From the NCBI GenBank assembly GCA_900547975.1, contig URIX01000003.1:17867-81866 (forward strand): a stretch of 64,000 nt of DNA, given 5' to 3'. Every line of letters starts with the position of its first letter. The stretch's first letter is position 1. Source of the stretch: an uncultured Eubacteriales bacterium. GTDB taxonomy: Bacteria; Bacillota; Clostridia; Christensenellales; CAG-917. Both the position numbers and the translations under genes were made by a program. Under the pieces are notes generated by a model. The model was given only the letters and a program-made list of their open reading frames with translations, was not told where the DNA came from and ran no database searches. Below are positions 1-34,710 of this stretch, piece after piece.

Positions 1-506
1 GATAGTATATATGCAGAAATGTCTTGTTGTTGTTTATTTTGTGCGATGTATGTCCTGTGAATTCCGTCAATTATAAGTGTTTCGTTTATAAAGTTATAAG
101 CAATTATAATTGGACTATGTTCACTTTGTAATGAAAGCGCTTTTATTTTGTTTATGTTAATTTCTGACTTTGATAAATTGATACTGTTAGTAGGAATTGA
201 AGTAATTGGTATATTCTTTTCTTTGATTATTTGTTCTGCCTTGTCAATAGAAAATGTAAGGGTGAAGGTTAAGCCAAGCATATTATAATCTTGTGTAAAA
301 AACTGGCTGTCTATGTTTTTTCTTGTTAAATAGTAAGACTTGTTTTGTATATTATGAATTTTTCCAATATAAAAATCTAGTTCATATTTAATCTCTGGAT
401 GTATCTCTTCTATTTGTTTAATATTGTTTTCAAATTCCTCAATGTTTGTTAATGGTATTGTTTCATATGACGTTATGCAATTATCAATATTTTGTTTATT
501 ATTCAT
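1..506 (-). CDS. ParB/sulfiredoxin-like domain protein, 3' end cut by the window edge (absent from the supplied ORF track)
   Basis: My own minus-strand translation from ATG at 506 (GGGAG 5 nt upstream) gives MNNKQNIDNCITSYETIPLTNIEEFENN...SPIIIAYNFINETLIIDGIHRTYIAQNK, open to position 1. The IIDGxHR stretch resembles the ParB N-terminal-domain signature. Extremely AT-rich. Sits 20 nt downstream of the XRE gene. Confidence 0.55.
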   Translation of the reverse strand, partial: MNNKQNIDNCITSYETIPLTNIEEFENNIKQIEEIHPEIKYELDFYIGKIHNIQNKSYYLTRKNIDSQFFTQDYNMLGLTFTLTFSIDKAEQIIKEKNIPITSIPTNSINLSKSEININKIKALSLQSEHSPIIIAYNFINETLIIDGIHRTYIAQNKQQQDISAYIL

Positions 507-525
507 TTATTCTCCCGTAAATATA

Positions 526-783
526 TTATTTTTTCTTTGTTTGAGTTGTAGTAAAAAAAACTTGTTTTGTTCCGTCTATGCTTTCGTATCCGAGAAGATA
601 ATCGGTTGATACTTCGAGGATGGATGCAAGTTTTTTTATATCTTCGATGCAAGGCTCTTGTTTATCGAGTTCCCACGATGAAATCGTCATTTTGCTGACA
701 TTGAAATAACTGGCTATATCATTCTGCGAATAGCCTTTTTCTTTTCTTAATTCTTTTAGTCTGTCACCAAAAATTTTGCTCAT
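526..783 (-). CDS. XRE-family helix-turn-helix transcriptional repressor (candidate prophage repressor)
   Basis: 85 aa. LKELRKEKGYSQNDIASYFNVSKMTISSWE is a typical HTH_3/Cro-CI motif. Divergent from the + strand ORF block and abuts the operator array. Confidence 0.85.
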   Translation of the reverse strand: MSKIFGDRLKELRKEKGYSQNDIASYFNVSKMTISSWELDKQEPCIEDIKKLASILEVSTDYLLGYESIDGTKQVFFTTTQTKKK

Positions 784-785
784 AG

Positions 786-868
786 GTAAAGAATAACATT
801 ACATATAAAAAATTGTTGACAGTAATGAAAAACATTACTATAATATGAAATGTAATGATAATCATTAC
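786..868. promoter_or_regulatory. Three 17-bp operator-like inverted repeats, GTAATG-N5-CATTAC
   Basis: O1 786-802 gtaaag-aataa-cattac (1 mismatch); O2 822-838 gtaatg-aaaaa-cattac; O3 852-868 gtaatg-ataat-cattac. Centre spacing is 36 and 30 bp. O2 fills the promoter spacer and O3 covers the predicted transcription start. Confidence 0.7.
816..844 (+). promoter_or_regulatory. Consensus sigma-A promoter for the + strand phage operon
   Basis: TTGACA (816-821), exact 17-nt spacer, TATAAT (839-844). Confidence 0.75.
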
Positions 869-1029
869 GGCGTAAAAATAGATGTTTTGAACGTTTAGTG
901 GCTTTTTCGTTCGCAAAACTTCTGTTTTGCGCAGGGCGCATCAAGTTTCGGTTTTTCTTCTTGTTGCGCCTTCCGCTTCGGCGGAACTCAAAAATCTACA
1001 AAAAGAAAAACGAAAAAAGAGGAACTAAT

Positions 1030-1428
1030 ATGATTATATTCTTGCTTATTAAGTATCTTCGATTGAAAGAGGCATATAGAAAACTGAACGATGACGTTCG
1101 AGCTTCTATTACCGGATGTTATTCAACGACTATTAATATTCCTTCCGGATATCAACTAAATAGAGTTTTAAAATCAAAAGATTACAGATCCGTGACGATT
1201 GAAGTTGTGCCGAACAAACTTTCGTTTTTTGAAGCAGAGATTAAAAAAATGAAAGAGCGTGAAGAAGCGCAAGCAGGCAACTGTAAGTCTATCGATGAGA
1301 TTACTGTCGAAGATTTGCAGAGTATGGACGAAACCGAGTTGAAAAAACTGCGCCATTTTAAAAAGGCATTCGATTACAAACAAAGGAATATGAAGAAGGA
1401 CGACAATGCCGACACGCCTGCATCTTGA
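1030..1428 (+). CDS. Hypothetical phage protein (133 aa)
   Basis: ATG at 1030 is preceded by AGAGGA. The tracked ORF start at 898 (GTG) adds an implausible F/R/L-rich extension across a hairpin-containing leader. Confidence 0.55.
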   Translation: MIIFLLIKYLRLKEAYRKLNDDVRASITGCYSTTINIPSGYQLNRVLKSKDYRSVTIEVVPNKLSFFEAEIKKMKEREEAQAGNCKSIDEITVEDLQSMDETELKKLRHFKKAFDYKQRNMKKDDNADTPAS

Positions 1429-1690
1429 AATACTAACGGGAACGTATAAGTTTCACGATTTTTTCAAATTCGATATCGGTTGGGATAAGTTTTCGCTCTA
1501 TCGGATGACGAATCGCTGGGGCGGTGAGAAAGTCGTGTGTATCTATCAATCGAGCAAAAAGTGTTATAGGGTGATGTACTGTGACAAGTGGAATATCAAA
1601 ATTAAGGGCGAATCGCTTGGTAATGGCTGTGAATACAGAAGTTTCCGAACTCAATGGGAACTGTGTCGTTACCTCGATACGCTTGTATAA
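1406..1690 (+). CDS. Hypothetical small phage protein (94 aa, Cys/Trp-containing)
   Basis: ATG with GAAGGA upstream; 23-nt overlap with the preceding ORF. No recognisable motif. Confidence 0.4.
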   Translation: MPTRLHLEILTGTYKFHDFFKFDIGWDKFSLYRMTNRWGGEKVVCIYQSSKKCYRVMYCDKWNIKIKGESLGNGCEYRSFRTQWELCRYLDTLV

Positions 1691-1703
1691 AGAGGAAAAC
1701 ACT

Positions 1704-2645
1704 ATGAAAGAAAAACAAAATGGTCAGACGTCTGACCGCATAATCATAAAGGCAACGGACATCGTGTCATATGGATTTTTTCAGGAATATATCCATTTTT
1801 ATTCTTCCGTTCTTGGAACTTGGTTCTTTGAACTGTACGGCAAAAAGATTGCCGTAGTAAAACATGACTGTTGGGATTTCGAGTTTAGGGAAGACGTGGA
1901 CGGCGAGTGTGGCAAAATCTGGAAGCACGGCGATTTCAATAGTTATAGGGATTTTATCAACTGCCTTTTCCCGAAAGATATGTTCGACGTCGACTTCTTC
2001 TTTCCCGTTGAGGTTATGCAAGAATATGAGATTCTGAATAGCGTAGAGGATCTTAACGATAACGTCGAGAAGAACTATCTTAACATATCGTATCTTCTTT
2101 ACGATTTGGCAACGAATCGTAAAACCTATTTCAAAGATATGGGTTCTTCGATATATGCGTATGCCGACAATCATTTCGGATATTGCCGTACAACAACAAA
2201 GAATATGGTTGCGATTTACGAGAAGTTTTGCGACCACAACGTCACGAGTTTCCCCGTAAGGCTCAAAGAAGAATTTGCGCAATATAAGTATTCGCAACTT
2301 GCGGAACTTGTTTCCGTTCCCGACGAGCTGCTTCCGAATTTCAGTCATTCGATGAGTATTAAAGATATTCGTCTTGCAAAGAAAAAATATCTTTCGTCTT
2401 TGAAGGGAACGCCGGAAAAGATAACGTCGGACGACGACGTAGCGGTTTTGCCGAAGGAAGAACGCAAGATGAGCAACGGCGAGATTGCAAAAAGAATCAA
2501 GGCGGTGAAGAATCCGTATTACAACGAAAACGCAATAGAGCAATCCGCAAGATATAAAGCGTATCAAAAGGCAATCGAGGACGTTCTCGATGCGTTGGGG
2601 ATTGTAGACTTCGAGGTGACCGGTGGCGAAGAAGACGAGGCTTGA
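1704..2645 (+). CDS. Hypothetical phage protein (313 aa)
   Basis: ATG at 1704 is preceded by AAAGAGGAAAA. Long ORF in the co-oriented block; no recognisable motif. Confidence 0.6.
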   Translation: MKEKQNGQTSDRIIIKATDIVSYGFFQEYIHFYSSVLGTWFFELYGKKIAVVKHDCWDFEFREDVDGECGKIWKHGDFNSYRDFINCLFPKDMFDVDFFFPVEVMQEYEILNSVEDLNDNVEKNYLNISYLLYDLATNRKTYFKDMGSSIYAYADNHFGYCRTTTKNMVAIYEKFCDHNVTSFPVRLKEEFAQYKYSQLAELVSVPDELLPNFSHSMSIKDIRLAKKKYLSSLKGTPEKITSDDDVAVLPKEERKMSNGEIAKRIKAVKNPYYNENAIEQSARYKAYQKAIEDVLDALGIVDFEVTGGEEDEA

Positions 2646-2925
2646 AAAAGATTTTGAATCGATTTTGCAGATTCTTGAACAGACAGATTGCGAGGATGTC
2701 GGTGACGGCGTGTTCGGTTGTCTGAAAGAGGCAATGCAAGATTCTGCAAACGATACGTCGCTTGCGATATTGTGCGACGTCGTCAAAAGGACAATCGTAT
2801 CGCTCGATATGATTTATCGCTTCGTTGTCATTCCGAAGTCGCAAAATAACATCGTTTTCAAGCAGATATTAGAATCTCACAGAACTATATCGAGCAAAAC
2901 CGTAAATACGGTAGCTAATAAATAA
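2623..2925 (+). CDS. Hypothetical small acidic phage protein (100 aa)
   Basis: GTG start with GAGGTG 4 nt upstream; overlaps the previous ORF by 23 nt. Start is uncertain. Confidence 0.4.
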   Translation: MAKKTRLEKDFESILQILEQTDCEDVGDGVFGCLKEAMQDSANDTSLAILCDVVKRTIVSLDMIYRFVVIPKSQNNIVFKQILESHRTISSKTVNTVANK

Positions 2926-2952
2926 CAAAAACCTAAAAAGGAGAACAAAACT

Positions 2953-3399
2953 ATGGCAGACAACAAAAAAATCGACGAACAACAAGTTCAGCAAGGATTG
3001 ATCGGATCTGATCCGAACGCAGAGGTTGCAGAGGAACGCAAACCCACGAACGTACGAGTTCAAAAGTTTTTGCTTTTGAGCGCAAGATCTTTCGACATTG
3101 CGAAGAAAGATGCAAAAGGTCGTAAAACTTCCGAAATGGAAAAGGTGATGCAAATCTTCTTCCTCGATGGCAATCAATGCATTCCGAAGACGGGCCAACC
3201 GTTGCTCAACGGTTTTGCTCCCGTCGTATCGATATTCCAAAGAGAGCTTACGCCGGAAGTAATGGATCTCGAAGAAATGCAAGTTTTTACGCCAGTATTT
3301 GCAAAAATCAGCGGAAACGAAAACTTCATACAGTTGCACGGTATTCTTTCGGATGCGGAAGTTGAGATGTATCGTAAGATTATGGGTGTACTTCTTTAA
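2953..3399 (+). CDS. Hypothetical phage protein (148 aa). By position it could be the ssDNA-binding-protein analogue, but this is unproven
   Basis: Strong AAGGAG RBS and soluble composition. Followed by a hairpin and a 251-nt non-coding gap. Confidence 0.65.
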   Translation: MADNKKIDEQQVQQGLIGSDPNAEVAEERKPTNVRVQKFLLLSARSFDIAKKDAKGRKTSEMEKVMQIFFLDGNQCIPKTGQPLLNGFAPVVSIFQRELTPEVMDLEEMQVFTPVFAKISGNENFIQLHGILSDAEVEMYRKIMGVLL

Positions 3400-3413
3400 G
3401 CCCCCTATTTCGT

Positions 3414-3444
3414 CCTATACGGCAAATACAAAGCGCCGTATAGG
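3414..3444 (+). terminator. Perfect 10-bp hairpin followed by a T-rich tract (terminator or ssDNA structural element)
   Basis: cctatacggc (3414-3423), 11-nt loop, gccgtatagg (3435-3444), then attttatatat. Confidence 0.45.
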
Positions 3445-3650
3445 ATTTTATATATCAAAAGCGAGGTGGTGCGGATGATCTGATTTGGTGTCAATCTCAT
3501 TAATTTCCCCTTAATTAAATTGAACGTTGTTTGTTTTCCCTGCCGTAGTCGGTGGGGAAGATAAACGGCGTAAGTAAGTAGGTAAATAAGCAAAAGTGAT
3601 TAACGGAATGGGGGTGAATAAAAAATAACATTTCGAGGTGAAAAAACAAT

Positions 3651-3863
3651 ATGGCAAAACTTATAAAAACAAAATCCGGCAAAGAAATTGCATTGCTCAA
3701 TCCTTCTGAACGTGCAAAGAAGTATTCTCGTGAACTTAAACACGGCAAGAAAAGAAACGGACAACCGCTTACAGAAGCCGAAGCAGGTTTTCGTATGGGT
3801 GTTCTGAATGAACGCTCATTGCAAGCGAAGATTTACAATCGCAAGCACGGAATCAAAAAATAA
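3651..3863 (+). CDS. Small highly basic protein (70 aa)
   Basis: GAGGTG RBS. K/R-rich (MAKLIKTKSGKE...KHGKKRNGQ...NRKHGIKK) with no TM segment. Confidence 0.6.
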   Translation: MAKLIKTKSGKEIALLNPSERAKKYSRELKHGKKRNGQPLTEAEAGFRMGVLNERSLQAKIYNRKHGIKK

Positions 3864-3869
3864 TAATTT

Positions 3870-4214
3870 ATGGCAAGAAAATATTTGCGGAAAAACGAGT
3901 TTCGGTATTACACAAAACCTGAATTTTCGTCAAAAAGCGGTAAACCGCACGTTGCACACATAAGTGCGAAATACAATAAACGCTATAAGTTTAATGTTAT
4001 AACACATTCGAGGACATTTTTTGATTCCGATACTATGGAATTGAAAAAGAATCCGAACCGTAACAACGGAGAGCAAAAGGATAAACGACAATCGAGGATT
4101 TCAAAACCTATGTGGGATAATGAAAAATACTTTTCAAAAAAGAAAGTCAAAAATTGGCGTTTTGACAAGCAAGACAAGTCCGCAATAAAGAAGTGGAACA
4201 AAAAAAACAAATAA
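3870..4214 (+). CDS. Small highly basic protein (114 aa)
   Basis: Starts 7 nt after the previous stop. K/R/N-rich, ends ...KKWNKKNK, no TM segment. Confidence 0.55.
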   Translation: MARKYLRKNEFRYYTKPEFSSKSGKPHVAHISAKYNKRYKFNVITHSRTFFDSDTMELKKNPNRNNGEQKDKRQSRISKPMWDNEKYFSKKKVKNWRFDKQDKSAIKKWNKKNK

Positions 4215-4371
4215 AAAAATCAGCCCGAGTGACCTCACGATCTGTTCCGAACACGGAATTCGGTGTGGCTGATTTCAATAGCATTATATGCAATCGTTTG
4301 ATAATTGTCAAGCGAAAATTCAAATCTGACACGGCAGAATCCGTGAATAATAAAAATGAGAGGTACATATT

Positions 4372-5232
4372 TTGAGCAGAAAATCTAAAAGTGTTTTGAA
4401 AGGCGTGCTTGTGACACTTGCCATTCTTTTGTTGGGGGTTGCGGTTACGGCAGCACTCACCAACGGTTTTAAGACTTCGAATCCATACGGCTGGCTTGAA
4501 AACTTCGACAGAATGAAGAAGGGGCAAGAGATCGCAGGCTTCGAGGTCTGCAAAGATTTCGACGTCGATTTTGAAAAACTCGTCAATAATGTCGAAGCAG
4601 TCGAGGACAAAGAAGCAGGCACGAAAACTTATGCGCTTGTTAAAACCGATAACGTAAACATCTACATCAACGTCGTTGAAACCATTGCGGACAAAAAGAG
4701 TACTTACGTTCTCAATGTGAACGGTCAAAGCGTTTGCACGAGTGCGGACGGATTCAACGATACGGCAATCGAAGCGATTAAGTCTTTCGATACTTGCAAA
4801 ATCACTGATGTTAAGAACGCAGGCAGACTCGCACATTATATCGGCGCAATCAAACCCGTTGCGACTACGGAAACTTCGGCAAAGTACGAAGTTATGAAAG
4901 TGGGGCAAACGATTTCGGGAATAGAGTGGAATTTTGACAACGGCGTTGACGTTCAAGAACTTATCAAAGGTATTGAACCTGTTGACGGGGAAGGTGGCAA
5001 AATCTACTACCTTGTCAAGACCGACAGTGAAAGTATTTCAATTTCGGTTCTATCTTCTACGCGCGAAGGCAAATCAATTTATGCGCTTTCATTTGGACAA
5101 CGTTGCCCTTGGGCTTCTGACAGTTCGATTATCGATTCGAATTTGGATTTGTGCAAATCTTTTACGGCGTGTAAAATAACCGAGGTTCACAACGCAGAGG
5201 TTCTTGCAAAATACGTCGGCGCAAAAGCGTAA
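4372..5232 (+). CDS. N-terminally membrane-anchored protein with an internal tandem domain duplication (286 aa)
   Basis: TTG start with GAGAGGT RBS. TM segment VLVTLAILLLGVAVTAAL. Two roughly 110-aa repeats (nt 4516-4854 and 4897-5229) share KxGQxIxGxE...LVKTD...KSxYxL...SFxxCKITxVxNA...YxGA. Confidence 0.7.
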   Translation: MSRKSKSVLKGVLVTLAILLLGVAVTAALTNGFKTSNPYGWLENFDRMKKGQEIAGFEVCKDFDVDFEKLVNNVEAVEDKEAGTKTYALVKTDNVNIYINVVETIADKKSTYVLNVNGQSVCTSADGFNDTAIEAIKSFDTCKITDVKNAGRLAHYIGAIKPVATTETSAKYEVMKVGQTISGIEWNFDNGVDVQELIKGIEPVDGEGGKIYYLVKTDSESISISVLSSTREGKSIYALSFGQRCPWASDSSIIDSNLDLCKSFTACKITEVHNAEVLAKYVGAKA

Positions 5233-5296
5233 CACTTTCAAATGTCGGGGGTGATTTTTTCGCCCTCGACAAAACAATTTTCCAAAGGTGATAAAA

Positions 5297-6178
5297 ATGA
5301 AAAACAATTCTTCAAAATATAACATATGTCAAATTGTCGGCGTAAGCGTTGTTTGCGCCATACTTGTTCTTGGCACTGTTCTCGGTGTTGTTTTCGGGCT
5401 TCGTTCTTCTTCGGAAGGGGCGATTACCGACTTTACACCGCAAGACGAATTTGTCGTTCGTGAGCAGGTATCGGAAGGAATAACGCTTCTGTCCGGTGTG
5501 GCTACAACGGCTGCCGACGGATCTACAACGAAAACTTTGACGGCGACAGTAAATCCTGCTGATTCGTTGAAAACAGGATATTCGTGGACGGTTGCGTTTG
5601 TCAATCCAAATTCAACTTGGGCGAAAGGAAAAGACGTTACGCAGTACGTTACTGTAACGGAAAATTCAAGCAATGAATTGCAAGCCACTGTGACTTTCAA
5701 AAAACGTTTCAATGAACAAATTAAGGTAACTATAACGTGCGATGCAAAGCCTGCCGTTACGGCATCTGCGACTGTGGATTGTTACAAGGTTTTGACAAAT
5801 GTCACGATTAAACTCGTTAATTCAAAAAATACGATTACATTGTCTGAGCTTGGTGAGGGACAAGATGCTCGTGTAGACGGCGATTTCTTACCATATGAAT
5901 ACAATGTCACTATAACCCCCGTATTGGGCGACGGCACACTTGAACCTGTTGACACATCGTCTAAAATTGTTCTTCATATGAATGCGGACGGTACCGAGGA
6001 GGCTGTGTCGGGTGGAAAGCTTAATCCCGATCAGGGTTATGCACAAGGCTATTTGACCCCAAATAATGACTATGTAATAGAATTTTTCTACGGCGGTACA
6101 TCTTATGCAAGATACGACGTTAGACTAATGGTTTATCCAAATACAATGTCGATGTCCGTAACTTCTATCAAGTTTTAA
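5297..6178 (+). CDS. N-terminally membrane-anchored protein, T/V-rich beta-type ectodomain (possibly Ig-like)
   Basis: ATG at 5297 follows AAAGGTG. TM segment IVGVSVVCAILVLGTVLGVVFGL. LTATVNPADS...YSWTVAF...LQATVTF...VTITCDA resembles bacterial Ig-like (Big_2-type) patterning; this match is weak. Confidence 0.65.
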   Translation: MKNNSSKYNICQIVGVSVVCAILVLGTVLGVVFGLRSSSEGAITDFTPQDEFVVREQVSEGITLLSGVATTAADGSTTKTLTATVNPADSLKTGYSWTVAFVNPNSTWAKGKDVTQYVTVTENSSNELQATVTFKKRFNEQIKVTITCDAKPAVTASATVDCYKVLTNVTIKLVNSKNTITLSELGEGQDARVDGDFLPYEYNVTITPVLGDGTLEPVDTSSKIVLHMNADGTEEAVSGGKLNPDQGYAQGYLTPNNDYVIEFFYGGTSYARYDVRLMVYPNTMSMSVTSIKF

Positions 6179-6188
6179 GAGGTGAACC

Positions 6189-6797
6189 GTGGCAAAACAA
6201 AGTAAAGTTTCTAAAATTATATCGGTTTTGCTTGTAATTGCGCTTTTTGCAGGCGCATTTGCAGGCATTTCCATACTTTTGAAAAAGTCGTTAGACGGAG
6301 TTTTGCCCGACTCGATGTTCTTCGTGAAAATTGCCGATAAAACGATATTTTCAACCGCTTCGGGATATGTTGTAAACAAAAATAATCCGCTTACGGTTGA
6401 AGTTAAAAAATCACTGCTGAATGACGATAAGGCAAATTATACGGTTACAATCGATGCCGATTCGGAGTTGTCTTTTTCGTATGTCAAAGACGGCAAAGTA
6501 AATTTGTTTAAATCGTCTGTCGATGTATCAGATTTCTTTGTTATCGTCGATAACGAAAAGGGATTTGTACTTACAGCAAAAGGTAGTTCTGTTACCGAAA
6601 TGCTGAACGTACTTAATGACGGTTCGTCAATAAGCGTTGATGAAAAGTATATCGATTACAAAAAGACAATGTTCTGGCTTACGATTACATCGAAAGACGA
6701 TGTGCAATCCTTTGTAAAAATTGGTTTCTCGATAAATACTTCGCCCGTCATCATACCCGACGAGATTGTTCTCGACCAAAAGGAAATTATATTCTAA
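6189..6797 (+). CDS. N-terminally membrane-anchored hypothetical protein (202 aa)
   Basis: GTG start with AGAGGTG 5 nt upstream. TM segment IISVLLVIALFAGAFAGISILL. Its stop overlaps the next start (TAATG). Confidence 0.65.
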   Translation: MAKQSKVSKIISVLLVIALFAGAFAGISILLKKSLDGVLPDSMFFVKIADKTIFSTASGYVVNKNNPLTVEVKKSLLNDDKANYTVTIDADSELSFSYVKDGKVNLFKSSVDVSDFFVIVDNEKGFVLTAKGSSVTEMLNVLNDGSSISVDEKYIDYKKTMFWLTITSKDDVQSFVKIGFSINTSPVIIPDEIVLDQKEIIF

Positions 6798-8989
6798 TGA
6801 AAACCTATAATTCTAAACTAACTATCAGAACTTTGATTACATTGCTTGTGTTTGTAACGCTGGCGTTTTTGTCTTTTCAAATAATATCGTCGGGATTGGT
6901 TGCATACGCAGGTGATAAAGATTTGAAGTTCGATAATACGTCTATATTCGAGGATTTGTACGGAAGCAAGGACGAGCAAGGCAATGAATTCGATTTGAGC
7001 AATTATCCCGTCGACAAAAACGGCGAATTGCAATTCTATACTTTTTTAGAGTATGGATATTCATATTATGAGAACGTACAAGAAAATTTTGCGTTGTATA
7101 TGTATCTTTACAATCCGCAACAGCTTGATTTATCGACATATCTCGATTCAAACGTTGTGCGTATGGCAACGGCGTTTGCCAAGAACATTGAGGGTGAATA
7201 CGTCGCTTCCGAATATGACGATTTTAACATCGTGTGCGTATCGAGAACTACGGGCGATTATGCGAATTTGTTTTACAAATTCAAGATTTTAGATCCGGAA
7301 AAGAAGCTTCTTGCGTTGGCTCAAAAGTATGAATCGGAAAACGGTTGTCGCAGATACGATATTGCAGGCGTTTATCTCAAAACCGATAAAAGCGACGTAA
7401 CGTTGGACAAAAACATCGGACGTTCTTTTAAGTGTAGCGGTTATATGGCGACGTATGGCGAAAACGCAAATAATCCGTCCACTTTCATGTGCAAAGTTGA
7501 CGTTCTCGAAACGCTTGATTTGAAAGTGTATCAGACGAGTTATTTGACGGGTGTATCGAGCGCAGGCGCATATCACCACAACAATGTGAGTTCGGTATAT
7601 TTTGCCATTCCGCAAAGAGTTTTCGATAAGTACGGCAGTCTTTGGGAAATTTATGCTCAATGGTATGAGTGCAAAACCGCGCCGATATTGGTGACGTCGA
7701 ATCAAGATTTTTATCAAAAAGCATTATCAAACAATCATTATGAAACCATTGATAATTCAGAAGGCGGAACATCTCTTTTGTATGACAAATCGGTGGATTA
7801 TTTGTTGTGGTATGGTAGGCATAGCGATTCGGTTGCGGGGTCTTCAAATATATTGCACTATGACTGGGCTTATAATTTAAGACCGTTTTCGATGACCTCT
7901 GGCAATATGTTTATTCAACGTTTTGCTAATAGTTACTCAAATGTATTGCCGTTTGTGTTTTACAGTCCGTCGTACACGGATTCGGGTGCGTTTAACGTTA
8001 TAAACAAACAAACGGTTGCAGGCGACGTAACATCTTCTTCGATTAGGGATTATATTCAGAACTACGCTTCGAGCAATTATGTATCTTGGCATACGTCGAG
8101 GAATCTTCCGTCCGAACTCTTTGTAAATGAAGTCGATTCTACTCGTTCTGCAAAGGGGATTCAAGTCGGGTTGAACAAAATCAGAACGAATCTTCAAGAT
8201 ACTTTTGATTTGAATTCGTATAATTCAAATCATTCGTGGTGGGATAAACTTTGGGAATACGGTTGGTCTTATCCAAAGGACGAAGCATTGGACGAATCGC
8301 ATACGAACGTTAGTCCGTTTGAAGAAGTTAAACAGACTTCGTTGAATTCTTCGAGTATTGCTTCCGATTTGCTTATCAACGAAAACGACATCGAGTCTTT
8401 CAAGACGTTTTGCAACGTAAGCTATGGCAAAAAGGAAGTGCCGTATTTGTTTAGATTCGCCGTGTCTGATTATACGTCACGACCTATAACTCGTAATCCT
8501 GGAAGATTAGATGTCGATCAAGATGTCGTTGATTCCTATCTTGCACAAGAAACGGTATTTTTCGACTTTAACATCATAACTATGACGTTTAAGGGCAAGG
8601 AAGATTATTATACGCTTGCGGTTATGCATACGCCCGTTGATGTCATTGCAGGCGTTGAACCACCGCCCGTTGAGCTTACCCCGGGCGAACATCTTGCCAA
8701 CAATTTTTTGACTGCAATGCAAAAGATTTGGGATTGGTTCAAAAATAGCAATTTCTTAAAAGCGTTGAAGATTCTCGGCTTGATAATCGTCGGCGCAATA
8801 ATCGCTTTAATTTTGATAAAGGTTATCGGATTCTTTATCGGAAAATTCAAGAAAGGAAATCGAGGCGGACAAAAGCAATCCAACGTAACCGTCGTTATCG
8901 ATTCGGATTCCGTAAAGAAGAATCCAGAGCGGAAGGGGATTTATCGGAAAACTCGTCAGAAGCCGAAGAATGAATCTCGTCGAAGGTGA
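6797..8989 (+). CDS. Large secreted protein with a cleavable-type signal peptide and a C-terminal TM anchor plus basic tail (pIII-like adsorption protein or spike candidate)
   Basis: 730 aa. N-terminus ...TLITLLVFVTLAFLSFQIISSGLVAYA. C-terminus FLKALKILGLIIVGAIIALILIKVIGFFIGKF followed by KKGNRGGQKQ...RKTRQKPKNESRRR. Confidence 0.75.
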   Translation: MKTYNSKLTIRTLITLLVFVTLAFLSFQIISSGLVAYAGDKDLKFDNTSIFEDLYGSKDEQGNEFDLSNYPVDKNGELQFYTFLEYGYSYYENVQENFALYMYLYNPQQLDLSTYLDSNVVRMATAFAKNIEGEYVASEYDDFNIVCVSRTTGDYANLFYKFKILDPEKKLLALAQKYESENGCRRYDIAGVYLKTDKSDVTLDKNIGRSFKCSGYMATYGENANNPSTFMCKVDVLETLDLKVYQTSYLTGVSSAGAYHHNNVSSVYFAIPQRVFDKYGSLWEIYAQWYECKTAPILVTSNQDFYQKALSNNHYETIDNSEGGTSLLYDKSVDYLLWYGRHSDSVAGSSNILHYDWAYNLRPFSMTSGNMFIQRFANSYSNVLPFVFYSPSYTDSGAFNVINKQTVAGDVTSSSIRDYIQNYASSNYVSWHTSRNLPSELFVNEVDSTRSAKGIQVGLNKIRTNLQDTFDLNSYNSNHSWWDKLWEYGWSYPKDEALDESHTNVSPFEEVKQTSLNSSSIASDLLINENDIESFKTFCNVSYGKKEVPYLFRFAVSDYTSRPITRNPGRLDVDQDVVDSYLAQETVFFDFNIITMTFKGKEDYYTLAVMHTPVDVIAGVEPPPVELTPGEHLANNFLTAMQKIWDWFKNSNFLKALKILGLIIVGAIIALILIKVIGFFIGKFKKGNRGGQKQSNVTVVIDSDSVKKNPERKGIYRKTRQKPKNESRRR

Positions 8990-8994
8990 TTGCT

Positions 8995-9108
8995 ATGGAA
9001 CCTAAAATCGACAAAAAGAAAATCGGCATTAGTATTGCCAAAATCATAGGATTTTGTATCGGCGCATTTCTAATCGGATACATTGTCTATACATTTATCA
9101 ACGCATAA
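8995..9108 (+). CDS. 37-aa single-TM micro-protein (candidate coat or pVI-like virion/assembly protein); not in the ORF track
   Basis: My translation: MEPKIDKKKIGISIAKIIGFCIGAFLIGYIVYTFINA. It fills the 124-nt gap between the 730-aa gene and the ATPase gene almost exactly. Confidence 0.5.
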   Translation: MEPKIDKKKIGISIAKIIGFCIGAFLIGYIVYTFINA

Positions 9109-9113
9109 CGGAT

Positions 9114-11357
9114 ATGAAAAAAGAAAACGTTTTGAAAAACTTAATCTGCGCAGGAATCGCAATCGGGCTTATGTTGCTCGGTGTGTTCTGTTTTAGAGAA
9201 TCTTATTTGAGATTCTTTGAAGCGTGCAAGGATTTCGGTCTTGCTGTTGCAGGGTTGTTTTTGAAAGTGTTTTCTTTCTCGTCTGATTTCAATTCAAAGA
9301 GTGTGTTCGAGGTTTCGAGCATTCCGCTTGAAAGCATTATCCCGTTAGATTTTTCGGCGTTTGTATCGAAGGTGAAAAACTTTGGTTCAAAACTTATCGA
9401 CGTCGAAAACATCGTCGGATATTTCCACGTCATTTGGCTTGGAAGTTACATCTTTATATACTTGCTTTTGATTGGCGTGCCAGTACTTTTTATCGTGTTG
9501 GCTATTATAGACGCTAATCTAAAAGGCAAGAACAACAATCACGGCGCCGAATCGAAACCGCTTGTTTTATTTAAGCGTTTTGAACGCCGTATTTTAAGTC
9601 CGATTAATTTTGAAGTTAAGAGTTTCGTGACTTTTGTTCGTGAATCGAAACTTTGGAAAGTCATATGGACTGTAATTATAGTTTTCAATTTGAACGTCGC
9701 CACAGTCCTTATGGAACTTATGGCGTTGTATTTTGCACTTTTGGACGGTTTGAACGTATCGAACCTGTATATCCTTTTTTATAAACTATTTGCTGATTTA
9801 TCGATGTTGACCCGTGTTCCCGTTACGGTCTGGATAATCTTTGCGATTTTCTTTGTTTTAATTTGGCGCAGAAAGAAAGGGTATGAGCGTTTGAATCGTC
9901 GTGAGCAAAAGAACAGGGCGGTTATCGAGTTGCTTTGCACATTCGTTATTTTCTTTGCGACAATGGGCGCAGGCAAAACGCTAACTATGACAGACGTTAT
10001 TTTGACGAAGCAACAAGAACTTCGTGAATCGGCTTTGGACATAATGAAAGAAGTCGATTTGACTTTCCCCGATTTCAAGTGGGCTGTATTCGAGCAAGAT
10101 ATGAAGAAGATGATGAATTCATATCAACGCCCGAAACGTGATTTTTTCGGAAAAGTTGTTAGGGATGAGTACGGGAATATCGTTTTTGAAACGGCACGTC
10201 CGATTCTTTACAATCTTTCTCGTATCGACGATTATTTTCACAATTTGAAAATAACCGCAAAAAGATACTTCGACGAGGACAACTGCGAGTATCGAAAGTT
10301 TTACGATAAAGCCGTAGCACAGGGCAAATTGAAACCTATTATGTGGGGCTATGACGTTGAATATTACGGATTCTGGGCGGATAACGCCTTGAAGTACGAA
10401 TATATACTTGATGCTTTGCGTGATTATGCGCAGGCGTATTTTATCTATTCTTTGCCGACGAGCTTAATTTTCTCAAATTATGCCGTCGTGACGAAGGACG
10501 TTAAAAACGACACGGGCAATTTTCCTGCTTGGATGACGGACTTTTTTGAAGTGCCGACATTCGAGTCTGACGGTGAGTCTATGAACTCGCACATATTGGA
10601 CAACGATATGTTGCGACTCGGCAAGAAGTTTGACGAAAATAACAAATACAAAGATGTTTTTGAATTTGGCGTTCTTGCTTACACGGAAGGCGACAAAGAG
10701 CGTGGCAATATGCTCGATACAATGGAACTTAAAAAACTTGTCGAAGAAGTGAATCAGAAGAACGACAATTTCAATGGAACGTTCAAGATGTCGAGGCATC
10801 CTGCGACGATTCGCAATAGAAAGTTTTTCTTTGCGTATATGGATATGCAGAGAACGAGCAGTATAAACGCCGACTTGAAAGAAATTGGCGACAACGTAAA
10901 GATTGAATCTGCGACTTCAACCGAAATGTTGATGCCGTTTTTTGCCATAGATGAACTGGTGTTCAATCTCGTAATGCCATACTTTTATAATAAGTACTAC
11001 GAATTCCGCCACAATCGAGGCGATATGAATTTGACGATGTACTTGATGAAGAAGGTAGCCACGGCGATGAATAATCATTATGTCAGAGCATATAACACGT
11101 TCGGGTGTAAGACTGAAAAGTTGATTATCAATGAAGAAAAAGAGGCAAAGTACTACATTATGCCGAAGAAGATATTCAGCGGTGTTTTCTCGTCCGATGC
11201 GCTTGCAAGTTTCTTCCGGATGAAATCATCCAGAGCGATGCTCGGCGTGAATGATATACCGACGTATCAGAGCGACAAGGCGAGCATAAGCGAACTTGAA
11301 CAACTCAACAGTTACTTTGTGCGGGATTGGATGAAATATCTCGGTAAAGACGAATAA
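9114..11357 (+). CDS. Polytopic-membrane P-loop NTPase (candidate morphogenesis/extrusion ATPase, functional analogue of inovirus pI/Zot)
   Basis: ATG at 9114 (MKKENVLKNLICAGIAIGLMLLGVF...). About 6-7 hydrophobic helices in the first roughly 270 aa, then Walker A ATMGAGKT ([AG]x4GK[ST]), then a roughly 450-aa soluble region. The tracked start at 9054 overlaps the micro-ORF. Confidence 0.7.
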   Translation: MKKENVLKNLICAGIAIGLMLLGVFCFRESYLRFFEACKDFGLAVAGLFLKVFSFSSDFNSKSVFEVSSIPLESIIPLDFSAFVSKVKNFGSKLIDVENIVGYFHVIWLGSYIFIYLLLIGVPVLFIVLAIIDANLKGKNNNHGAESKPLVLFKRFERRILSPINFEVKSFVTFVRESKLWKVIWTVIIVFNLNVATVLMELMALYFALLDGLNVSNLYILFYKLFADLSMLTRVPVTVWIIFAIFFVLIWRRKKGYERLNRREQKNRAVIELLCTFVIFFATMGAGKTLTMTDVILTKQQELRESALDIMKEVDLTFPDFKWAVFEQDMKKMMNSYQRPKRDFFGKVVRDEYGNIVFETARPILYNLSRIDDYFHNLKITAKRYFDEDNCEYRKFYDKAVAQGKLKPIMWGYDVEYYGFWADNALKYEYILDALRDYAQAYFIYSLPTSLIFSNYAVVTKDVKNDTGNFPAWMTDFFEVPTFESDGESMNSHILDNDMLRLGKKFDENNKYKDVFEFGVLAYTEGDKERGNMLDTMELKKLVEEVNQKNDNFNGTFKMSRHPATIRNRKFFFAYMDMQRTSSINADLKEIGDNVKIESATSTEMLMPFFAIDELVFNLVMPYFYNKYYEFRHNRGDMNLTMYLMKKVATAMNNHYVRAYNTFGCKTEKLIINEEKEAKYYIMPKKIFSGVFSSDALASFFRMKSSRAMLGVNDIPTYQSDKASISELEQLNSYFVRDWMKYLGKDE

Positions 11358-11363
11358 TACGTT

Positions 11364-11640
11364 CTCGATGTCAAGGACAAGGCAAAAATAATTTTTGCTC
11401 GCAAAAATTATTTTCGGGACGGAATGCCCCTTGACATCGAGGGATAAAGATTACAATTTTACAAGTCCGTGCAACATATGTGTTGCACGGCTTGGTTGCA
11501 AAATAAGCTTGACGTTTGAGCGTAAGCGATACAACTCAAAATTTTGCCCTCGGAAGTCCGACGGCGCACAAGAGCAGGTTGCCGGTGCGCCGACGGAAGC
11601 CGAAGGCAAAAATGTTTGCGCACTTGATACTGCGCAAACA
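11364..11640. promoter_or_regulatory. Hairpin-dense intergenic region (candidate replication origin / packaging-signal region)
   Basis: 13-bp inverted repeat ctcgatgtcaagg (11364-11376) / ccttgacatcgag (11429-11441) encloses the palindrome caaaaataatttttg. Perfect 10-bp hairpin ccgtgcaaca-tatg-tgttgcacgg (11467-11490). Two more 8-bp stems: cggcgcac/gtgcgccg and gtttgcgc/gcgcaaac. Confidence 0.55.
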
Positions 11641-11660
11641 TAAAGGTCACGGAGGCTGAA

Positions 11661-12710
11661 ATGAACGCACTCTTGAATTCTCTATTACATAACTGCGTAA
11701 AGCGTGAAGAAATGACTCCGAGCTGGCTTCCTGATAAGGATGCCAACTATCACGATATAGCGATAGCAGAGAAGAAACTCGCAAGCAACGAGAATCGCAG
11801 ATACATATATCAAAATTATTGCGCAACTTGCACTTGCAGGACAAATTGCAAAATAATCGGATATAGGCATTGGAAGAAGATAAACACGATAATAAATAGA
11901 TTTCCGACTGGGGAAGTCGAGATAATTCGTTTTGACGAGCCGTTGAAGTGTATAGACGAGAACGTCAATCAAGAAAATGTCGGCGGAAGGAATTATATAG
12001 AGATAGACGGGATTTTGTTTCCGAAAGACGAAAACGCAAGCAATGCAAAGTTTTTGGAAAATATGTCAAACTCTGCGAGGCAGAGTGTAGACAAATATTG
12101 GGGCTTTGCAAAATCGAACGAATGGGATTATTTCATAACGTTGACTTGCGATCCGAAGAAGGTTGACAGATTCGATGACGACAAAGTAAAAGAACTTTGG
12201 ACGTATTGCAGGAAGAAGATTCAACGTTTCGATTGCAACGCAAAGATTTTGCTTGTGTGGGAACGTCATAAAAAAGAAAACGAATACGGACAGAAGGCAT
12301 TGCACGCTCACGGTTTCGTATCGATGCAACGGGCGTTTACGTGGCGACAAATGAAAGATAGGAACGGGAAGTGGATGTATTCGAATACGGGTGCAGCATT
12401 GTTTGAGTTTCCGTTCTGGGATTACGGACTTGCGACGTGCGCAATTATACCGAAGGGAAAAGACGAGAACGGGAACGATATAACGCAAGGTGCGGTTGTA
12501 AGTTATCTTTCAAAGTATATGAGCAAGAGTGAGATAAGTGAAGTCGGCTATGGAAAGAAACGTTTTCATCATACGACGAATCTTGCGTTCAAAGAAAAAG
12601 GAATGTATTGTATGGATTGCGACACGTTTGAAGAATCAATCGGGGATGACTTCGAGATATATAAGAAGGATGACAAGGGCAGAACGTATTATAGAAGCAA
12701 AAGGCACTGA
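11661..12710 (+). CDS. Rolling-circle replication initiator, HUH superfamily, two-tyrosine type
   Basis: GGAGG RBS. Motif I FITLT (WDYFITLTCD), motif II HUH (ALHAHGFV) and motif III YxxKYxxK (VVSYLSKYMSK) occur in canonical order. The last has the same form as the phiX174 gpA-type active site. Confidence 0.8.
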   Translation: MNALLNSLLHNCVKREEMTPSWLPDKDANYHDIAIAEKKLASNENRRYIYQNYCATCTCRTNCKIIGYRHWKKINTIINRFPTGEVEIIRFDEPLKCIDENVNQENVGGRNYIEIDGILFPKDENASNAKFLENMSNSARQSVDKYWGFAKSNEWDYFITLTCDPKKVDRFDDDKVKELWTYCRKKIQRFDCNAKILLVWERHKKENEYGQKALHAHGFVSMQRAFTWRQMKDRNGKWMYSNTGAALFEFPFWDYGLATCAIIPKGKDENGNDITQGAVVSYLSKYMSKSEISEVGYGKKRFHHTTNLAFKEKGMYCMDCDTFEESIGDDFEIYKKDDKGRTYYRSKRH

Positions 12711-12799
12711 AAATTAATGTTCAACCCGTGTATAAACTATTCGCAAAACACAACCTTTACGCAAAGAAAGTGATAAAATATGCTCTAAATAGAGGATTT

Positions 12800-12835
12800 T
12801 ACAAAATTAAGATTTGTTATGTAAAATATTTTACA
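12800..12835. other. dif-like / XerD-arm-like motif cluster at the right flank of the element (candidate att site)
   Basis: ttatgtaaaat (12817-12827) matches 10/11 of the XerD arms of E. coli dif (TTATGTTAAAT) and B. subtilis dif (TTATGTAAACT). It is part of a perfect 16-bp palindrome tgtaaaatattttaca (12820-12835). Two further ATTTTACAAA copies flank it. Confidence 0.3.
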
Positions 12836-13035
12836 AATTTCTCATATGTGTGTTTTTTCGAATTTCGGTTATTTGATATTCGGGACCGATTCTAATATCG
12901 ATTTCTATGTCGTTTTTTATATTATTATCTGTTCAAACCCGCCGTATTTTGTCGAAAACAAATCGATTCTCTATCCGTTTTACTCTGATTAAAACAGCGA
13001 TTTTTACGATTTTAAGTGGATTTATTGCGGGATTT

Positions 13036-14283
13036 TCAGTCGAAATTCAAGGTTTCGAGCGTGTGCAAAACCGCTAAATAAGCGTGTTCGTATGTCAAGC
13101 CGCCTTGAACGTAGACGATATACGGTTCTTTTATTGGCGAATCCGCGCTCAATTCGATTGACGAGCCTTGAACAAATGCGCCGGCAGCCATAATTACTTG
13201 ATTTTGGTATCCTGGCATATCCCACGGCAACGGTTTTACATTGCTGTCAATCGGCGAAATCTCTTGAATTGCGCCGCAAAAATCGATAAGTTTTTCTTCC
13301 GACCCGAGTTTTATGCTCGTAACGATGTCGTAAGGCTTCATATCGTCGCGCGGAAGCGTCTCAAAACCGAGTTTTGAATAGGTTTTTGCAAACAAAAGCG
13401 AGCCTTTGAGCGCGTTTTTGACTGCCGACGGCGCAAGAAACAAACCTTGATAATACGGCAAATAACCGTAGGCGTACGAGCCTTCTTCCATACCGAGCGA
13501 AGGCGCGGTCAAACGATAGGAAACTTGCTCGACAAGTTGCGATTTTCCTGTGATATAGCCGCCTGTGGGTGCGATTCCGCCACCGATATTTTTGATGAGC
13601 GAACCGGCGATTAAATCCGCGCCGACGTCGGTCGGTTCGATTTTTTCGACAAATTCGCCGTAGCAATTATCAATCAAAACGAGCGTTTCTGGGCTGATTT
13701 TTTTGACGAATTTGACGAGTTTTGCGACGTTTTCGACGCTAATTGCTTGACGAAGGCTGTATCCGCGACTTCTTGCGGCAAAAACAGCCTTGATTTTTTC
13801 GGTTTTAAGCGCGTTTTCGATGGCTTCATAGTCAAATTCGGGTGTCAAATCGGGGTTGGTTTTCAAGTCGATTTTGTCGAATCTGATTCCGAAATCCTTC
13901 AAAGAACCTTTGTTATCTGCCAAAATAACGTCGGTAAGCGTGTCGTAAGGCATACCAGAAACCGCCAAAAGTTTGTCGCCGGGACGCAAAACGCCGAAAA
14001 GCATAAGCGTCAAAGCGTGCGTTCCTGACACGATATTCGGCGAAACAATCGCGCTTTCGGCGTTGAAAATATCCGCATAAAGCCTGCAAAGCGTATCTCT
14101 GCCGATGTCGTCGTAGCCATAACCGGTCGTTCCGAACATATGGCGCGCTTGAATGGATTGATTTTTGTACGCGTCGAGGACTTTCTTTTGATTGTAAAGT
14201 GCGATGTCGTCAAGACGAGCATATTGTTCTTTTAGTTCGTGTTCACATTCTATTACAAGATTATTTGCCGATATTTTGTCCAT
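13036..14283 (-). CDS. ynbB: Methionine-gamma-lyase-family PLP protein (YnbB / aluminium-resistance-protein-like)
   Basis: 415 aa. FGTTGYGYDDIGRDTLCRLYADIFNAESAIVSPNIVSGTHAL matches the signature region of this family. Confidence 0.7.
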   Translation of the reverse strand: MDKISANNLVIECEHELKEQYARLDDIALYNQKKVLDAYKNQSIQARHMFGTTGYGYDDIGRDTLCRLYADIFNAESAIVSPNIVSGTHALTLMLFGVLRPGDKLLAVSGMPYDTLTDVILADNKGSLKDFGIRFDKIDLKTNPDLTPEFDYEAIENALKTEKIKAVFAARSRGYSLRQAISVENVAKLVKFVKKISPETLVLIDNCYGEFVEKIEPTDVGADLIAGSLIKNIGGGIAPTGGYITGKSQLVEQVSYRLTAPSLGMEEGSYAYGYLPYYQGLFLAPSAVKNALKGSLLFAKTYSKLGFETLPRDDMKPYDIVTSIKLGSEEKLIDFCGAIQEISPIDSNVKPLPWDMPGYQNQVIMAAGAFVQGSSIELSADSPIKEPYIVYVQGGLTYEHAYLAVLHTLETLNFD

Positions 14284-14459
14284 ATTTTATGCCTTTTTAG
14301 GTTATTTTTTCGATTGATTTTCGAGATTTTGTATACCTTGTTTTAGTTGTTTCTTGATTTTACTTGCAGTAAAATGGATTATATTTCGTTAGTTTTGTTA
14401 TGAATTTCGTGATTTTGTTGCGGATTTATCGCACTTTTAGCGCGATTTTTCCTCAGTTT

Positions 14460-34702: not shown

Positions 34703-34710
34703 AAAATGAA

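Follow-up and report, generated by a model that had tools for sequence, protein, structure and literature searches.

A mobile 13.2-kb integrative element of gut Clostridia with a phage-type rolling-circle Rep and an orphan membrane ATPase module: a candidate extruding single-stranded DNA phage-like family

At the left edge of the stretch of DNA analysed here (hereafter the window: 64,000 nucleotides, positions 17,867 to 81,866 of contig URIX01000003.1 in GenBank assembly GCA_900547975.1, from an uncultured human-gut Eubacteriales bacterium of the Christensenellales lineage CAG-917) lies an integrated element of 13,189 bp, laid out as a minus-strand regulator and a tightly packed plus-strand operon. 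The operon begins with a module of early genes, continues with two very basic soluble proteins and a set of membrane proteins, and closes with a hairpin-rich intergenic region and the gene of a rolling-circle initiator, Rep (Table 1). The GC content of the element is 39.5 %, against 45-47 % in its flanks. A previous reading of this DNA, made from the letters and without database searches (the sequence-only reading), had proposed an extruding single-stranded DNA (ssDNA) phage of about 12 kb at 526-12835. The unit is in fact larger, since its left end is beyond the window start, while its right end is at 12716, 6 bp past the Rep stop codon, and the repeat that borders it runs to 12751. The inventory of genes given in that reading stands: the Rep with its FITLT, HAH and YLSKYMSK motifs, the P-loop ATPase with its membrane helices, the 730-aa protein with an N-terminal signal and a C-terminal transmembrane (TM) helix, the 37-aa open reading frame (ORF) with a single TM helix, three further N-terminally anchored proteins and the hairpin-rich region between ATPase and Rep are all present, and no family match to a capsid, portal, terminase, tail, lysin or integrase gene was obtained in Pfam, PHROGs or NCBIfam, antisense ORFs included.

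The boundaries were set by comparison with a related locus, L091, and with relatives in which the site is empty. A perfect 36-bp direct repeat, composed of a 35-bp core, ATGTTCAACCCGTGTATAAACTATTCGCAAAACAC (12717-12751), and one added base (A), stands on both sides of the element. The left copy precedes the window start, at about -473..-438 (the core at -472..-438 in L091), and for this reason no pair of att direct repeats was found within the window alone. An exact-match search with the repressor protein led to L091, which agrees with the window throughout a shared 9 kb (100 % identity) and continues for another 9.5 kb on the left. The left flank that it reveals is a host AP-endonuclease / ribF / truB / nrnA / rbfA / infB / nusA operon and not the tailed-phage genes which the sequence-only reading had named as evidence against its proposal; the right flank holds methionine gamma-lyase, miaA, mutL and mutS. 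Similarity to the insert-free relatives ends at the one 35-bp sequence, on the left and on the right alike. Empty sites were found in L037 (flanks 94 % identical), L012 and L011, and the empty L015 and the occupied L007 have flanks which are 98 % identical, so the block is not a fixture of the locus; among 80 species-level genomes retrieved by means of the lyase gene, few sites are occupied. Furthermore, a gut contig of 12,425 bp without host DNA (L104), 94-98 % identical to the element, reads from the Rep stop codon through a core identical to that of attR into the left element end. This is an attP junction, of a circle or of a tandem array, and it comes from this variant and not from the strain of the window itself. 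A distant relative, L108, has the 55-bp terminal overlap that is the signature of a circular assembly, the only such overlap among about 20 contigs of 8-20 kb.

The genes tested are intact, and in all of them the ratio of non-synonymous to synonymous substitution (dN/dS) is 0.05-0.43, indicating purifying selection. With the direct repeats, the empty sites and the joined junction, this leads to the conclusion that the element is real, functional and mobile. Synonymous divergence is uneven along it, with a dS of about 0.05-0.1 in the left module and of 0.7-1.6 in the membrane module, so that the element is also a recombination mosaic.

Mobility is achieved without a self-encoded recombinase, for neither integrase nor recombinase was found in the full 13.2-kb unit with Pfam, PHROGs and NCBIfam, long antisense ORFs included. 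Integration and excision act at the 36-bp core, and the candidates for the activity are the HUH Rep, a host recombinase or RecA, for which about 70 bp of imperfect similarity around the core could serve as a substrate together with the core. The att site lies between genes, Rfam gave no match to a small RNA there, and no tRNA gene was found in the window. A dif/Xer site was considered and weakly rejected, the core having by eye no paired inverted arms; in the single complete metagenome-assembled chromosome the locus is about 60 kb from the start of an assembly whose start point is not known. Nicking by Rep within the core, with replicative excision between the repeats, was likewise set aside and is kept as a conjecture, since the core has neither a hairpin nor a CTTGATA-like motif; the hairpins conserved in the family are located in the intergenic region or, in distant relatives, 3' of rep, and not in the att core.

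Two further loci were observed beside the methionine gamma-lyase gene. In L043 (host lyase 72 % identical) a solo G2P-type Rep gene of 288 aa (11807-12673, minus strand; PF23343 at 1e-16) stands alone between the methionine gamma-lyase and AP-endonuclease genes, that is, at the same chromosomal site; it may be a remnant or a minimal Rep-only element, and is compatible with a role of Rep in integration. In L071 (host lyase 50 % identical) a distant relative whose ATPase is 31 % identical is inserted beside the same gene (13021-20401, minus strand), with no recognisable Rep between ATPase and lyase, which suggests that this locus has been targeted repeatedly.

Table 1. Features of the element in order along the window (negative positions lie to the left of its first letter).
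Feature	Position	Strand	Basis or remark
Accessory gene, 269 aa (first 168 codons in window)	3..506; whole gene -303..506	-	translation; full gene in L091, 10278-11087
CI/Cro-type helix-turn-helix (HTH) repressor, 85 aa	526..783	-	PF01381 HTH_3 1.8e-14; phrog_8 transcriptional regulator 1.6e-24
Switch region	784..1029	+	perfect TTGACA-17-TATAAT promoter at 816-844, scan score 12/12
Early module, five ORFs	1030..3399	+	ORF calls; same genes in L091-L098
Early ORF, 132 aa	1030-1428	+	
Early ORF, 94 aa	1406-1690	+	
Early ORF, 340 aa	1623-2645	+	
Early ORF, 100 aa	2623-2925	+	
Early ORF, 148 aa	2953-3399	+	
Very basic soluble protein, 70 aa	3651-3863	+	net charge +13, computed
Very basic soluble protein, 114 aa	3870-4214	+	net charge +23, computed
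N-anchored ectodomain protein, 286 aa	4372-5232	+	one TM
N-anchored ectodomain protein, 293 aa	5297-6178	+	one TM
N-anchored ectodomain protein, 202 aa	6189-6797	+	one TM
Anchored protein, 730 aa	6797..8989	+	TM at residues 12-30 and 659-677
Single-TM protein, 37 aa	8995..9108	+	basic N-terminus, one TM helix, conserved GY..YT motif
Membrane P-loop NTPase, 747 aa	9114..11357	+	five N-terminal TM helices, then C-terminal GAGKT Walker A domain
Cis-acting intergenic region, 303 nt	11358..11660	+	four conserved hairpins; ssDNA fold z = -12.1
Last hairpin (hairpin D)	11611-11641		ATGTTTGCGCA-CTTGATAC-TGCGCAAACAT; invariant
Rolling-circle initiator Rep, 349 aa	11661..12710	+	PF23343 REP_ORF2-G2P 1.4e-7; phrog_3419 rolling-circle initiation
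attR, right copy of 36-bp repeat	12716..12751	.	A-ATGTTCAACCCGTGTATAAACTATTCGCAAAACAC

Comparison of Rep with rolling-circle initiator families, as the sequence-only reading had proposed, places it among the HUH initiators by motifs and by profile: it scores 32.2 bits against PF23343, the curated cut-off being 27.8, and it carries motif 1 (FITLT), the HUH motif (HAHGF) and a motif 3 with two tyrosines (YLSKYMSK). Its closest relatives in the phage database are Reps of Inoviridae (24-32 % identity), and its dN/dS is 0.05-0.10. The intergenic region before it is strongly structured as ssDNA, with a fold of -85.8 kcal/mol against -41 +/- 3.7 for shuffled sequences, and its conservation exceeds that of coding sequence, about 90 % of nucleotides being kept where the ATPase of the relatives is 68 % identical. 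All four hairpins are kept in relatives, with compensatory changes at 5 base pairs.

Roles can be proposed for three of these hairpins. The cleavage site of phiX174 gene A is CAACTTG/ATA, and the loop of the last hairpin, CTTGATAC, resembles it, a likeness which fits because Rep is a two-tyrosine initiator of that superfamily; this hairpin is therefore proposed as the plus-strand origin. The loop of the third hairpin, AAGAGCAGGTTGCC, is related to one conserved 3' of rep in many distant relatives (CAAGCGGTTCAGCG or TTTAGCG), a motif that recalls the CS-6 box, part of the ssoA single-strand origins; synthesis of the complementary strand may thus start here. The largest hairpin, which is the first and stands directly 3' of the ATPase stop codon, occupies a position equivalent to that of the packaging signal of Ff, and by this analogy only might play such a part. 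Among the relatives themselves, many (L001, L002, L008, L110-L171) have a long GC-rich hairpin 3' of rep with the loop CAAGCGGTTCAGCG or TTTAGCG, and in a second group its place is taken by hairpins of the form GTTTTGCGCC...GGCGC. Both kinds are probably parts of origins, each belonging to particular subgroups of Rep.

Upstream of the intergenic region at least six membrane proteins are encoded, whose TM segments were obtained by hydropathy scan and whose net charges were computed from sequence. The smallest of them, the 37-aa protein, ends 9 nt ahead of the ATPase start, and this arrangement is general, since a single-TM protein of 30-50 aa was found directly 5' of the ATPase in all of the 62 distinct related cases (consensus MKTxKRIL-(TM)-GY[FL][IV]YTG). 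It is a candidate coat or assembly subunit. The 730-aa protein combines a signal-like N-terminus, a large ectodomain and a C-terminal TM helix followed by a basic tail, cytoplasmic by predicted topology, and is a candidate adsorption or spike protein. Relatives of it occur in 24 of 33 distant loci, a 606-aa protein without detectable similarity takes its place in L003, and no match was found in the PDB or in the phage database. Its residues 641-691 (8717-8869) form an aromatic-rich membrane-proximal stretch (IWDWF) with the TM helix, for which phmmer gave a non-significant E = 0.24-0.8 against the membrane-proximal external region and TM helix of HIV gp41, probably an effect of composition.

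In the three N-anchored proteins the TM helix is near the N-terminus and is preceded by a basic stretch. They evolve fastest of all, being 35-79 % identical to their counterparts in L007, where Rep is 97 % identical; the 293-aa protein, rich in beta structure, has relatives in 28 of the 33 distant loci. The 286-aa protein contains a domain of about 110-130 aa twice in tandem, both copies closing with CKIT[DE]V.NA..LA.Y[IV]GA, a duplication that must be recent because relatives have a single-domain form of 169-174 aa. As the basic stretch comes before the TM helix in these proteins, as it does in the 37-aa protein, and after it in the 730-aa protein, a shared topology can be deduced, in which the basic segments would be cytoplasmic and face the DNA while the ectodomains are outside. 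The 70-aa and 114-aa soluble proteins, in turn, are candidates for condensing or coating DNA; the former, in those loci that have it, keeps about 66 % identity even where that of the ATPase is down to about 33 %.

The ATPase defines a large family. A word-indexed search returned 47 homologues, none annotated, and an exhaustive profile search over public genomes and metagenomes gave 1,263 clusters at 50 % identity, 640 of them scoring below 1e-30. The 150 best matches listed are mostly of 700-800 aa and align along nearly the whole profile; in these 150 members the Walker A lysine K288, the Walker-B-like E525 and R580 are invariant. The related loci retrieved came largely from gut metagenomes. 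Nevertheless, the ATPase has no match in Pfam (E <= 0.01), NCBIfam, PHROGs or PADLOC, its sequence-profile search of the PDB came back empty, and 24 members of the family gave no match to any ATPase family of Pfam even at E <= 5, Zot (PF05707), VirD4, TcpA and FtsK included. Neither a link to conjugative coupling proteins, which would have told against the sequence-only reading, nor the Zot/pI or FtsK-HerA kinship for which that reading had suggested a profile check is thus observed. Comparison by hhalign of the ATPase with two inovirus Zot proteins aligned the Walker A motif alone, as did alignment of the 150-sequence ATPase profile with a 24-sequence PF05707 profile (35 % probability); the Zot profile is low in diversity (64-85 % identity), so that very remote kinship could escape this comparison.

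Structure prediction led to the same result. An AlphaFold2 model of the full-length protein from 24 sequences was dropped, together with its meaningless Foldseek output, its predicted local distance difference test (pLDDT) being 64 overall and below 50 in the core. The cytoplasmic C-terminal domain, modelled from 150 sequences, reached a pLDDT of 94.9 and a predicted TM-score of 0.90. With this model Foldseek retrieved nothing below E = 0.08 from the PDB, only generic P-loop fragments (AAA+, G-alpha, HerA), and no Zot, terminase or A32-like match from BFVD, where the sole significant neighbour was A0A894JLK1, a viral protein of 269 aa that could not be identified (E = 3e-4, target-normalised TM-score 0.53). 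Collections of mobile DNA are equally poor in the family: there was no match among 72,556 plasmids, tblastn of the window ATPase gave one unverified record among 50,697 phage records, and with the ATPase-family alignments A1 and A2 two contigs of IMG/VR were retrieved. No description of the family was found in the literature within the coverage of the search, outside which most subscription-journal papers fall.

The genes around the ATPase show what is constant in these elements. A G2P-type Rep gene follows that of the ATPase at a distance of 24-1200 bp in most of the related loci surveyed, so that tiny TM protein, ATPase and Rep form a linked set. In six loci a Rep that joins an HUH domain to a superfamily-3 helicase (HUH-S3H) is found instead, 6-10 kb from the ATPase and upstream of it in five. 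Some distant loci have in addition an rve integrase gene behind that of Rep, a tyrosine integrase occurs in one, and one ATPase relative adjoins PcfJ/PcfK-like genes. The above-mentioned L108 (14,576 bp) unites the membrane/ATPase module with an rve (DDE) integrase, a Rep of the HUH/superfamily-3 helicase type (Rep_OBD and RNA_helicase) and a DnaJ-domain protein. Since the membrane genes are constant while those of Rep and integrase vary, the membrane module is the invariant core, and the functions of replication and integration are exchangeable. The same exchange of replication and integration genes around a core is described for inoviruses (Roux et al., PMC6813254).

As regards regulation, the repressor gene is divergent from the main operon, and exactly the same protein recurs in 117 indexed blocks of the assembly collection. 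GTAATG/CATTAC inverted repeats overlap the consensus promoter of the switch region and would be the operator. Beside the repressor there is what looks like a variable cargo or exclusion slot, filled by unrelated genes in variants of the element and by six consecutive HTH genes in L003; here it holds the 269-aa accessory gene, with a GC content of about 30 % and an IIDGIHR motif. The protein has no match in Pfam or PADLOC; the motif recalls ParB-like nuclease domains. Within the early module, where dN/dS relative to L007 is 0.05-0.41, the 340-aa protein matches phrog_15077, a PHROG of unknown function, and this is the sole family match. Apart from it and Rep, the plus-strand ORFs are without a match in Pfam, PHROGs, NCBIfam and PADLOC. 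A second sigma-70 promoter of 12/12 consensus was noticed inside the operon on the minus strand (4283-4311), at the boundary of a 60-aa and the 286-aa ORF, and may be an antisense promoter or a chance match. Elsewhere in the window, in host chromosome unrelated to the element, are an ornate large extremophilic (OLE) RNA (40116-40714, minus strand; 408.7 bits) and a class A RNase P RNA (34385-34705, plus strand; 245.9 bits).

The element belongs to a large undescribed family in gut Clostridia. Our favoured interpretation, to which we give somewhat less than an even chance, is that of a temperate integrative 13.2-kb element with an ssDNA replication intermediate, extruding and phage-like, which is equipped with a new export and assembly module; its particles are putative. 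In favour of such a non-lytic ssDNA style of life are the phage-type Rep, the Ff-like cis region and the CI-type switch, the universal short TM protein, the very basic small proteins and the swapped, fast-evolving ectodomain proteins, together with the lack of genes for conjugation, partition, capsid or lysis. The extruding ssDNA phage of the sequence-only reading is therefore kept in part: mobility, the Rep, the cis region and the absence of tailed-phage and conjugation genes agree with it, and the expected Zot/pI-type ATPase does not materialise. That reading found no classical major coat protein, which needs to be qualified, as the 37-aa ORF, whose family is present in every locus examined, is a candidate coat or assembly subunit.

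According to this scheme, in the integrated state the repressor would shut the promoter at 816-844, and derepression would lead to expression of the entire plus-strand operon. Rep would then nick the plus strand in the hairpin region 5' of its own gene, the likeliest site being the CTTG/ATAC loop at 11622-11629, and rolling-circle replication would yield ssDNA circles, in which the remaining hairpins might prime synthesis of the complementary strand, tag the strand for export, or both. The two very basic proteins would neutralise the ssDNA and hand it to a membrane machine in which the five-TM ATPase works with the small TM protein and which would carry it across the membrane without lysis. 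The DNA would leave in a coat of membrane-inserted proteins with their basic ends towards it, and the anchored ectodomain proteins (286, 293, 202 and 730 aa) would act as adsorption or tip proteins. A broader proposal, which we regard as possible though open to considerable doubt, is that ATPase, tiny TM protein and anchored proteins constitute the morphogenesis machine of ssDNA viruses of gut Clostridia, non-lytic and so far unrecognised. Their lineage would rank as a family or higher and be unrelated to the Zot/pI inoviruses, it would integrate and excise at the 36-bp core by means of Rep or a host enzyme and without a recombinase of its own, and current virus-detection tools would be effectively blind to it in spite of more than 1,000 protein clusters in public data. 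That the membrane module defines something categorically new is, similarly, more doubtful than probable.

Several considerations weigh against the favoured interpretation. As far as can be detected the ATPase is related neither to Zot/pI nor to the FtsK-HerA packaging ATPases nor to any solved fold, an export role is suggested for it by topology and gene linkage alone, and the phage and viral collections searched contain almost nothing of its family. The basic end of the tiny TM protein is N-terminal, the reverse of known inovirus coat proteins, and the protein could equally be a subunit of the ATPase; a filament would not usually have three anchored proteins of 200-300 aa; and no lysin or wall-remodelling enzyme is encoded which could help DNA past a Gram-positive wall. 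The boundaries, mobility, purifying selection, the family of Rep, the structured cis region, the membrane topologies and the linkage of tiny TM gene, ATPase and Rep across the family are shown, whereas the site of nicking, export, the making of particles and the parts played by the single membrane proteins are inferred.

Such considerations give room to a non-viral integrative rolling-circle element, a plasmid or mobilisable element which makes no virion, whose ATPase pumps DNA into a neighbouring cell or has another function in the membrane, and whose ectodomains are adhesins or serve surface exclusion. A polytopic N-terminal part followed by a C-terminal NTPase is the layout of FtsK, TraB and coupling proteins, a resemblance and not a homology; no coat or capsid homologue is found among the proteins of the element; circular forms suit a plasmid equally, and fast-evolving Ig-like surface proteins suit adhesins too, while the PcfJ/PcfK-like neighbours of one relative and the rarity of the family in phage and IMG/VR collections are in line with this explanation. 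We nevertheless judge it unlikely, although it deserves serious attention. Relaxase, coupling protein, VirB4, FtsK_SpoIIIE and wall hydrolase went undetected even at E <= 5 in 24 family members, the 72,556 plasmids contained nothing of the kind, the Rep is of the phage G2P/ORF2 family and not of the Rep_trans or MOB type, and very basic small proteins with a universal TM protein of 30-50 aa are more typical of virions. The opposite extreme, a decayed or domesticated prophage remnant fixed at the locus and immobile, could appeal to the missing recombinase, to the occupation of the same locus in several species and to the solo Rep at the equivalent site of L043; it is largely refuted, and hardly credible, in view of occupied and empty sites between near-identical flanks, the attP junction of L104, the perfect 36-bp repeats, the intact genes under purifying selection (dN/dS 0.05-0.43) and the mosaic structure.

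Among the viral alternatives, an enveloped pleomorphic virus that buds, with a nucleoprotein core of the 70-aa and 114-aa proteins inside host membrane that bears the 730-aa spike and the N-anchored proteins, would account for at least six membrane proteins, including the 730-aa one with its signal peptide and C-terminal anchor, and for two strongly basic soluble proteins. Replication modules are swapped around the core of membrane proteins and NTPase, just as pleolipoviruses exchange theirs. To our knowledge, though, budding through a walled cell has no bacterial precedent outside Mollicutes, and the Ff-like hairpins and the Inoviridae-related Rep point to extrusion of ssDNA. The plasmavirus L2, which the sequence-only reading had put forward in support of this alternative, is close in size (12 kb against about 13 kb; PMC12662186), and its ORF13 is alike in layout (738 aa, signal peptide, C-terminal hydrophobic stretch); no sequence similarity to any L2 protein was found, however, and L2 has DnaA-box origins, not rolling-circle replication, and a tyrosine-type recombinase (PMC12662186). 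Budding is accordingly considered improbable. Less probable still is a true but extremely diverged inovirus (Tubulavirales) whose ATPase is related to pI/Zot too remotely for the methods used to show it. The nearest phage relatives of the Rep are Inoviridae, a short single-TM protein is present, and the order of large anchored protein, tiny TM protein, ATPase, hairpins and Rep mirrors the gIII-gVI-gI-IG-gII order of Ff, where IG is the intergenic region. The set of structural proteins, moreover, differs in each candidate inovirus family (PMC6813254). Against it, 24 ATPase members leave PF05707 unmatched even at E <= 5, profile-profile alignment with Zot stops at Walker A at 35 % probability, the model of pLDDT 95 has no Zot-like structure in the PDB or BFVD, and the domain order is the reverse of that of pI, the TM part being here N-terminal and the ATPase C-terminal.

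Whichever explanation holds, a widespread class of mobile DNA in gut Clostridia goes unannotated, its 1,263 clusters having no model in Pfam, NCBIfam, PHROGs or PADLOC, and how DNA is integrated and excised at a 36-bp core when no recombinase is encoded is a concrete, testable question of biochemistry. If particles are made, the family would offer a new solution to assembly and export for ssDNA phages of Gram-positive bacteria, and marker-based inovirus surveys would miss the whole group; screens based on pI would probably do so, as the ATPase has no detectable homology to Zot/pI. If no particles are made, the ATPase module becomes a candidate for a new mechanism of DNA transfer.

In comparison with known systems, the element resembles rolling-circle plasmids and the HUH elements of the IS91/Helitron type in its two-tyrosine HUH Rep and in hairpins like those of double- and single-strand origins, the TAGCG/CAGCG loop motif of distant relatives being similar to the CS-6 box of ssoA. 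HUH enzymes can in principle integrate DNA without a recombinase. The element is, however, much larger than these, it has a six-gene membrane module and, unlike IS91, it integrates site-specifically, with the 36-bp core duplicated at both ends. It has the repeats, the empty site and the attP junction of a site-specific integrative element and lacks only the self-encoded recombinase. As regards the genes of conjugative or mobilisable elements, no ORF gave a relaxase, coupling protein, VirB4 or FtsK_SpoIIIE match in Pfam or NCBIfam.

With L2 (Plasmaviridae), whose host lacks a cell wall, it has in common an integrative life, a size of about 12-13 kb, nearly all genes on one strand, no capsid gene, a protein of envelope type, about 730 aa long, which has a signal peptide and is anchored at its C-terminus, and several small membrane proteins. 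Homology was sought by tblastn of the ATPase (phage collection including L13696), by hhalign against ORF1 and by BLASTP of the 730-aa protein against ORF13, in each case without an L2 match. L2 replicates bidirectionally from DnaA-box origins by means of the host replisome and has its own recombinase, and related prophages occupy tRNA genes (PMC12662186). Unlike it, the present element has a rolling-circle Rep, no recombinase and an intergenic att site. Pleolipoviridae place an exchangeable replication module, which may include a rolling-circle Rep, around a C-anchored spike, small membrane proteins and an NTPase, and the element follows the same modular logic; their hosts are archaea, though, their NTPase is not a polytopic membrane protein, and no similarity to them was detected in PHROGs, Pfam or the phage collection. 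Therefore, what is shared with L2 and the pleolipoviruses is the general layout only.

The closest parallels are those with the filamentous phages, that is, with Ff and with the inoviruses described from gut metagenomes and Clostridia by Roux et al. 2019 and Burckhardt et al. 2023. For inoviruses the pI/Zot-like ATPase (PF05707, FtsK-HerA superfamily) is the only conserved marker and short structural proteins (30-90 aa) with a single TM domain are a further criterion (Roux et al. 2019, PMC6813254), pI being the marker gene used for detection (PMC10061712). No homologue of this marker was detected in the element; it has one short single-TM ORF, that of 37 aa, whose structural role is putative, and it has both the Rep and the structured intergenic region. 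It departs from Inoviridae in the reversed domain order of its ATPase, in the presence of two very basic soluble proteins and of three proteins of 200-300 aa with N-terminal anchors, in the basic N-terminus of its candidate coat protein, and in size, its 13.2 kb being roughly double the 6.5-8.5 kb of the Enterocloster inoviruses. Inovirus prophages with direct repeats and without an integrase are common (PMC6813254, PMC10061712). The element shares this trait with Inoviridae, as it does the G2P-family Rep, the hairpin-rich cis region beside rep and the lack of lysis genes, and with Ff it shares the succession of large anchored protein, tiny TM protein and membrane ATPase; hence, as far as genes alone can tell, it works most like an inovirus.

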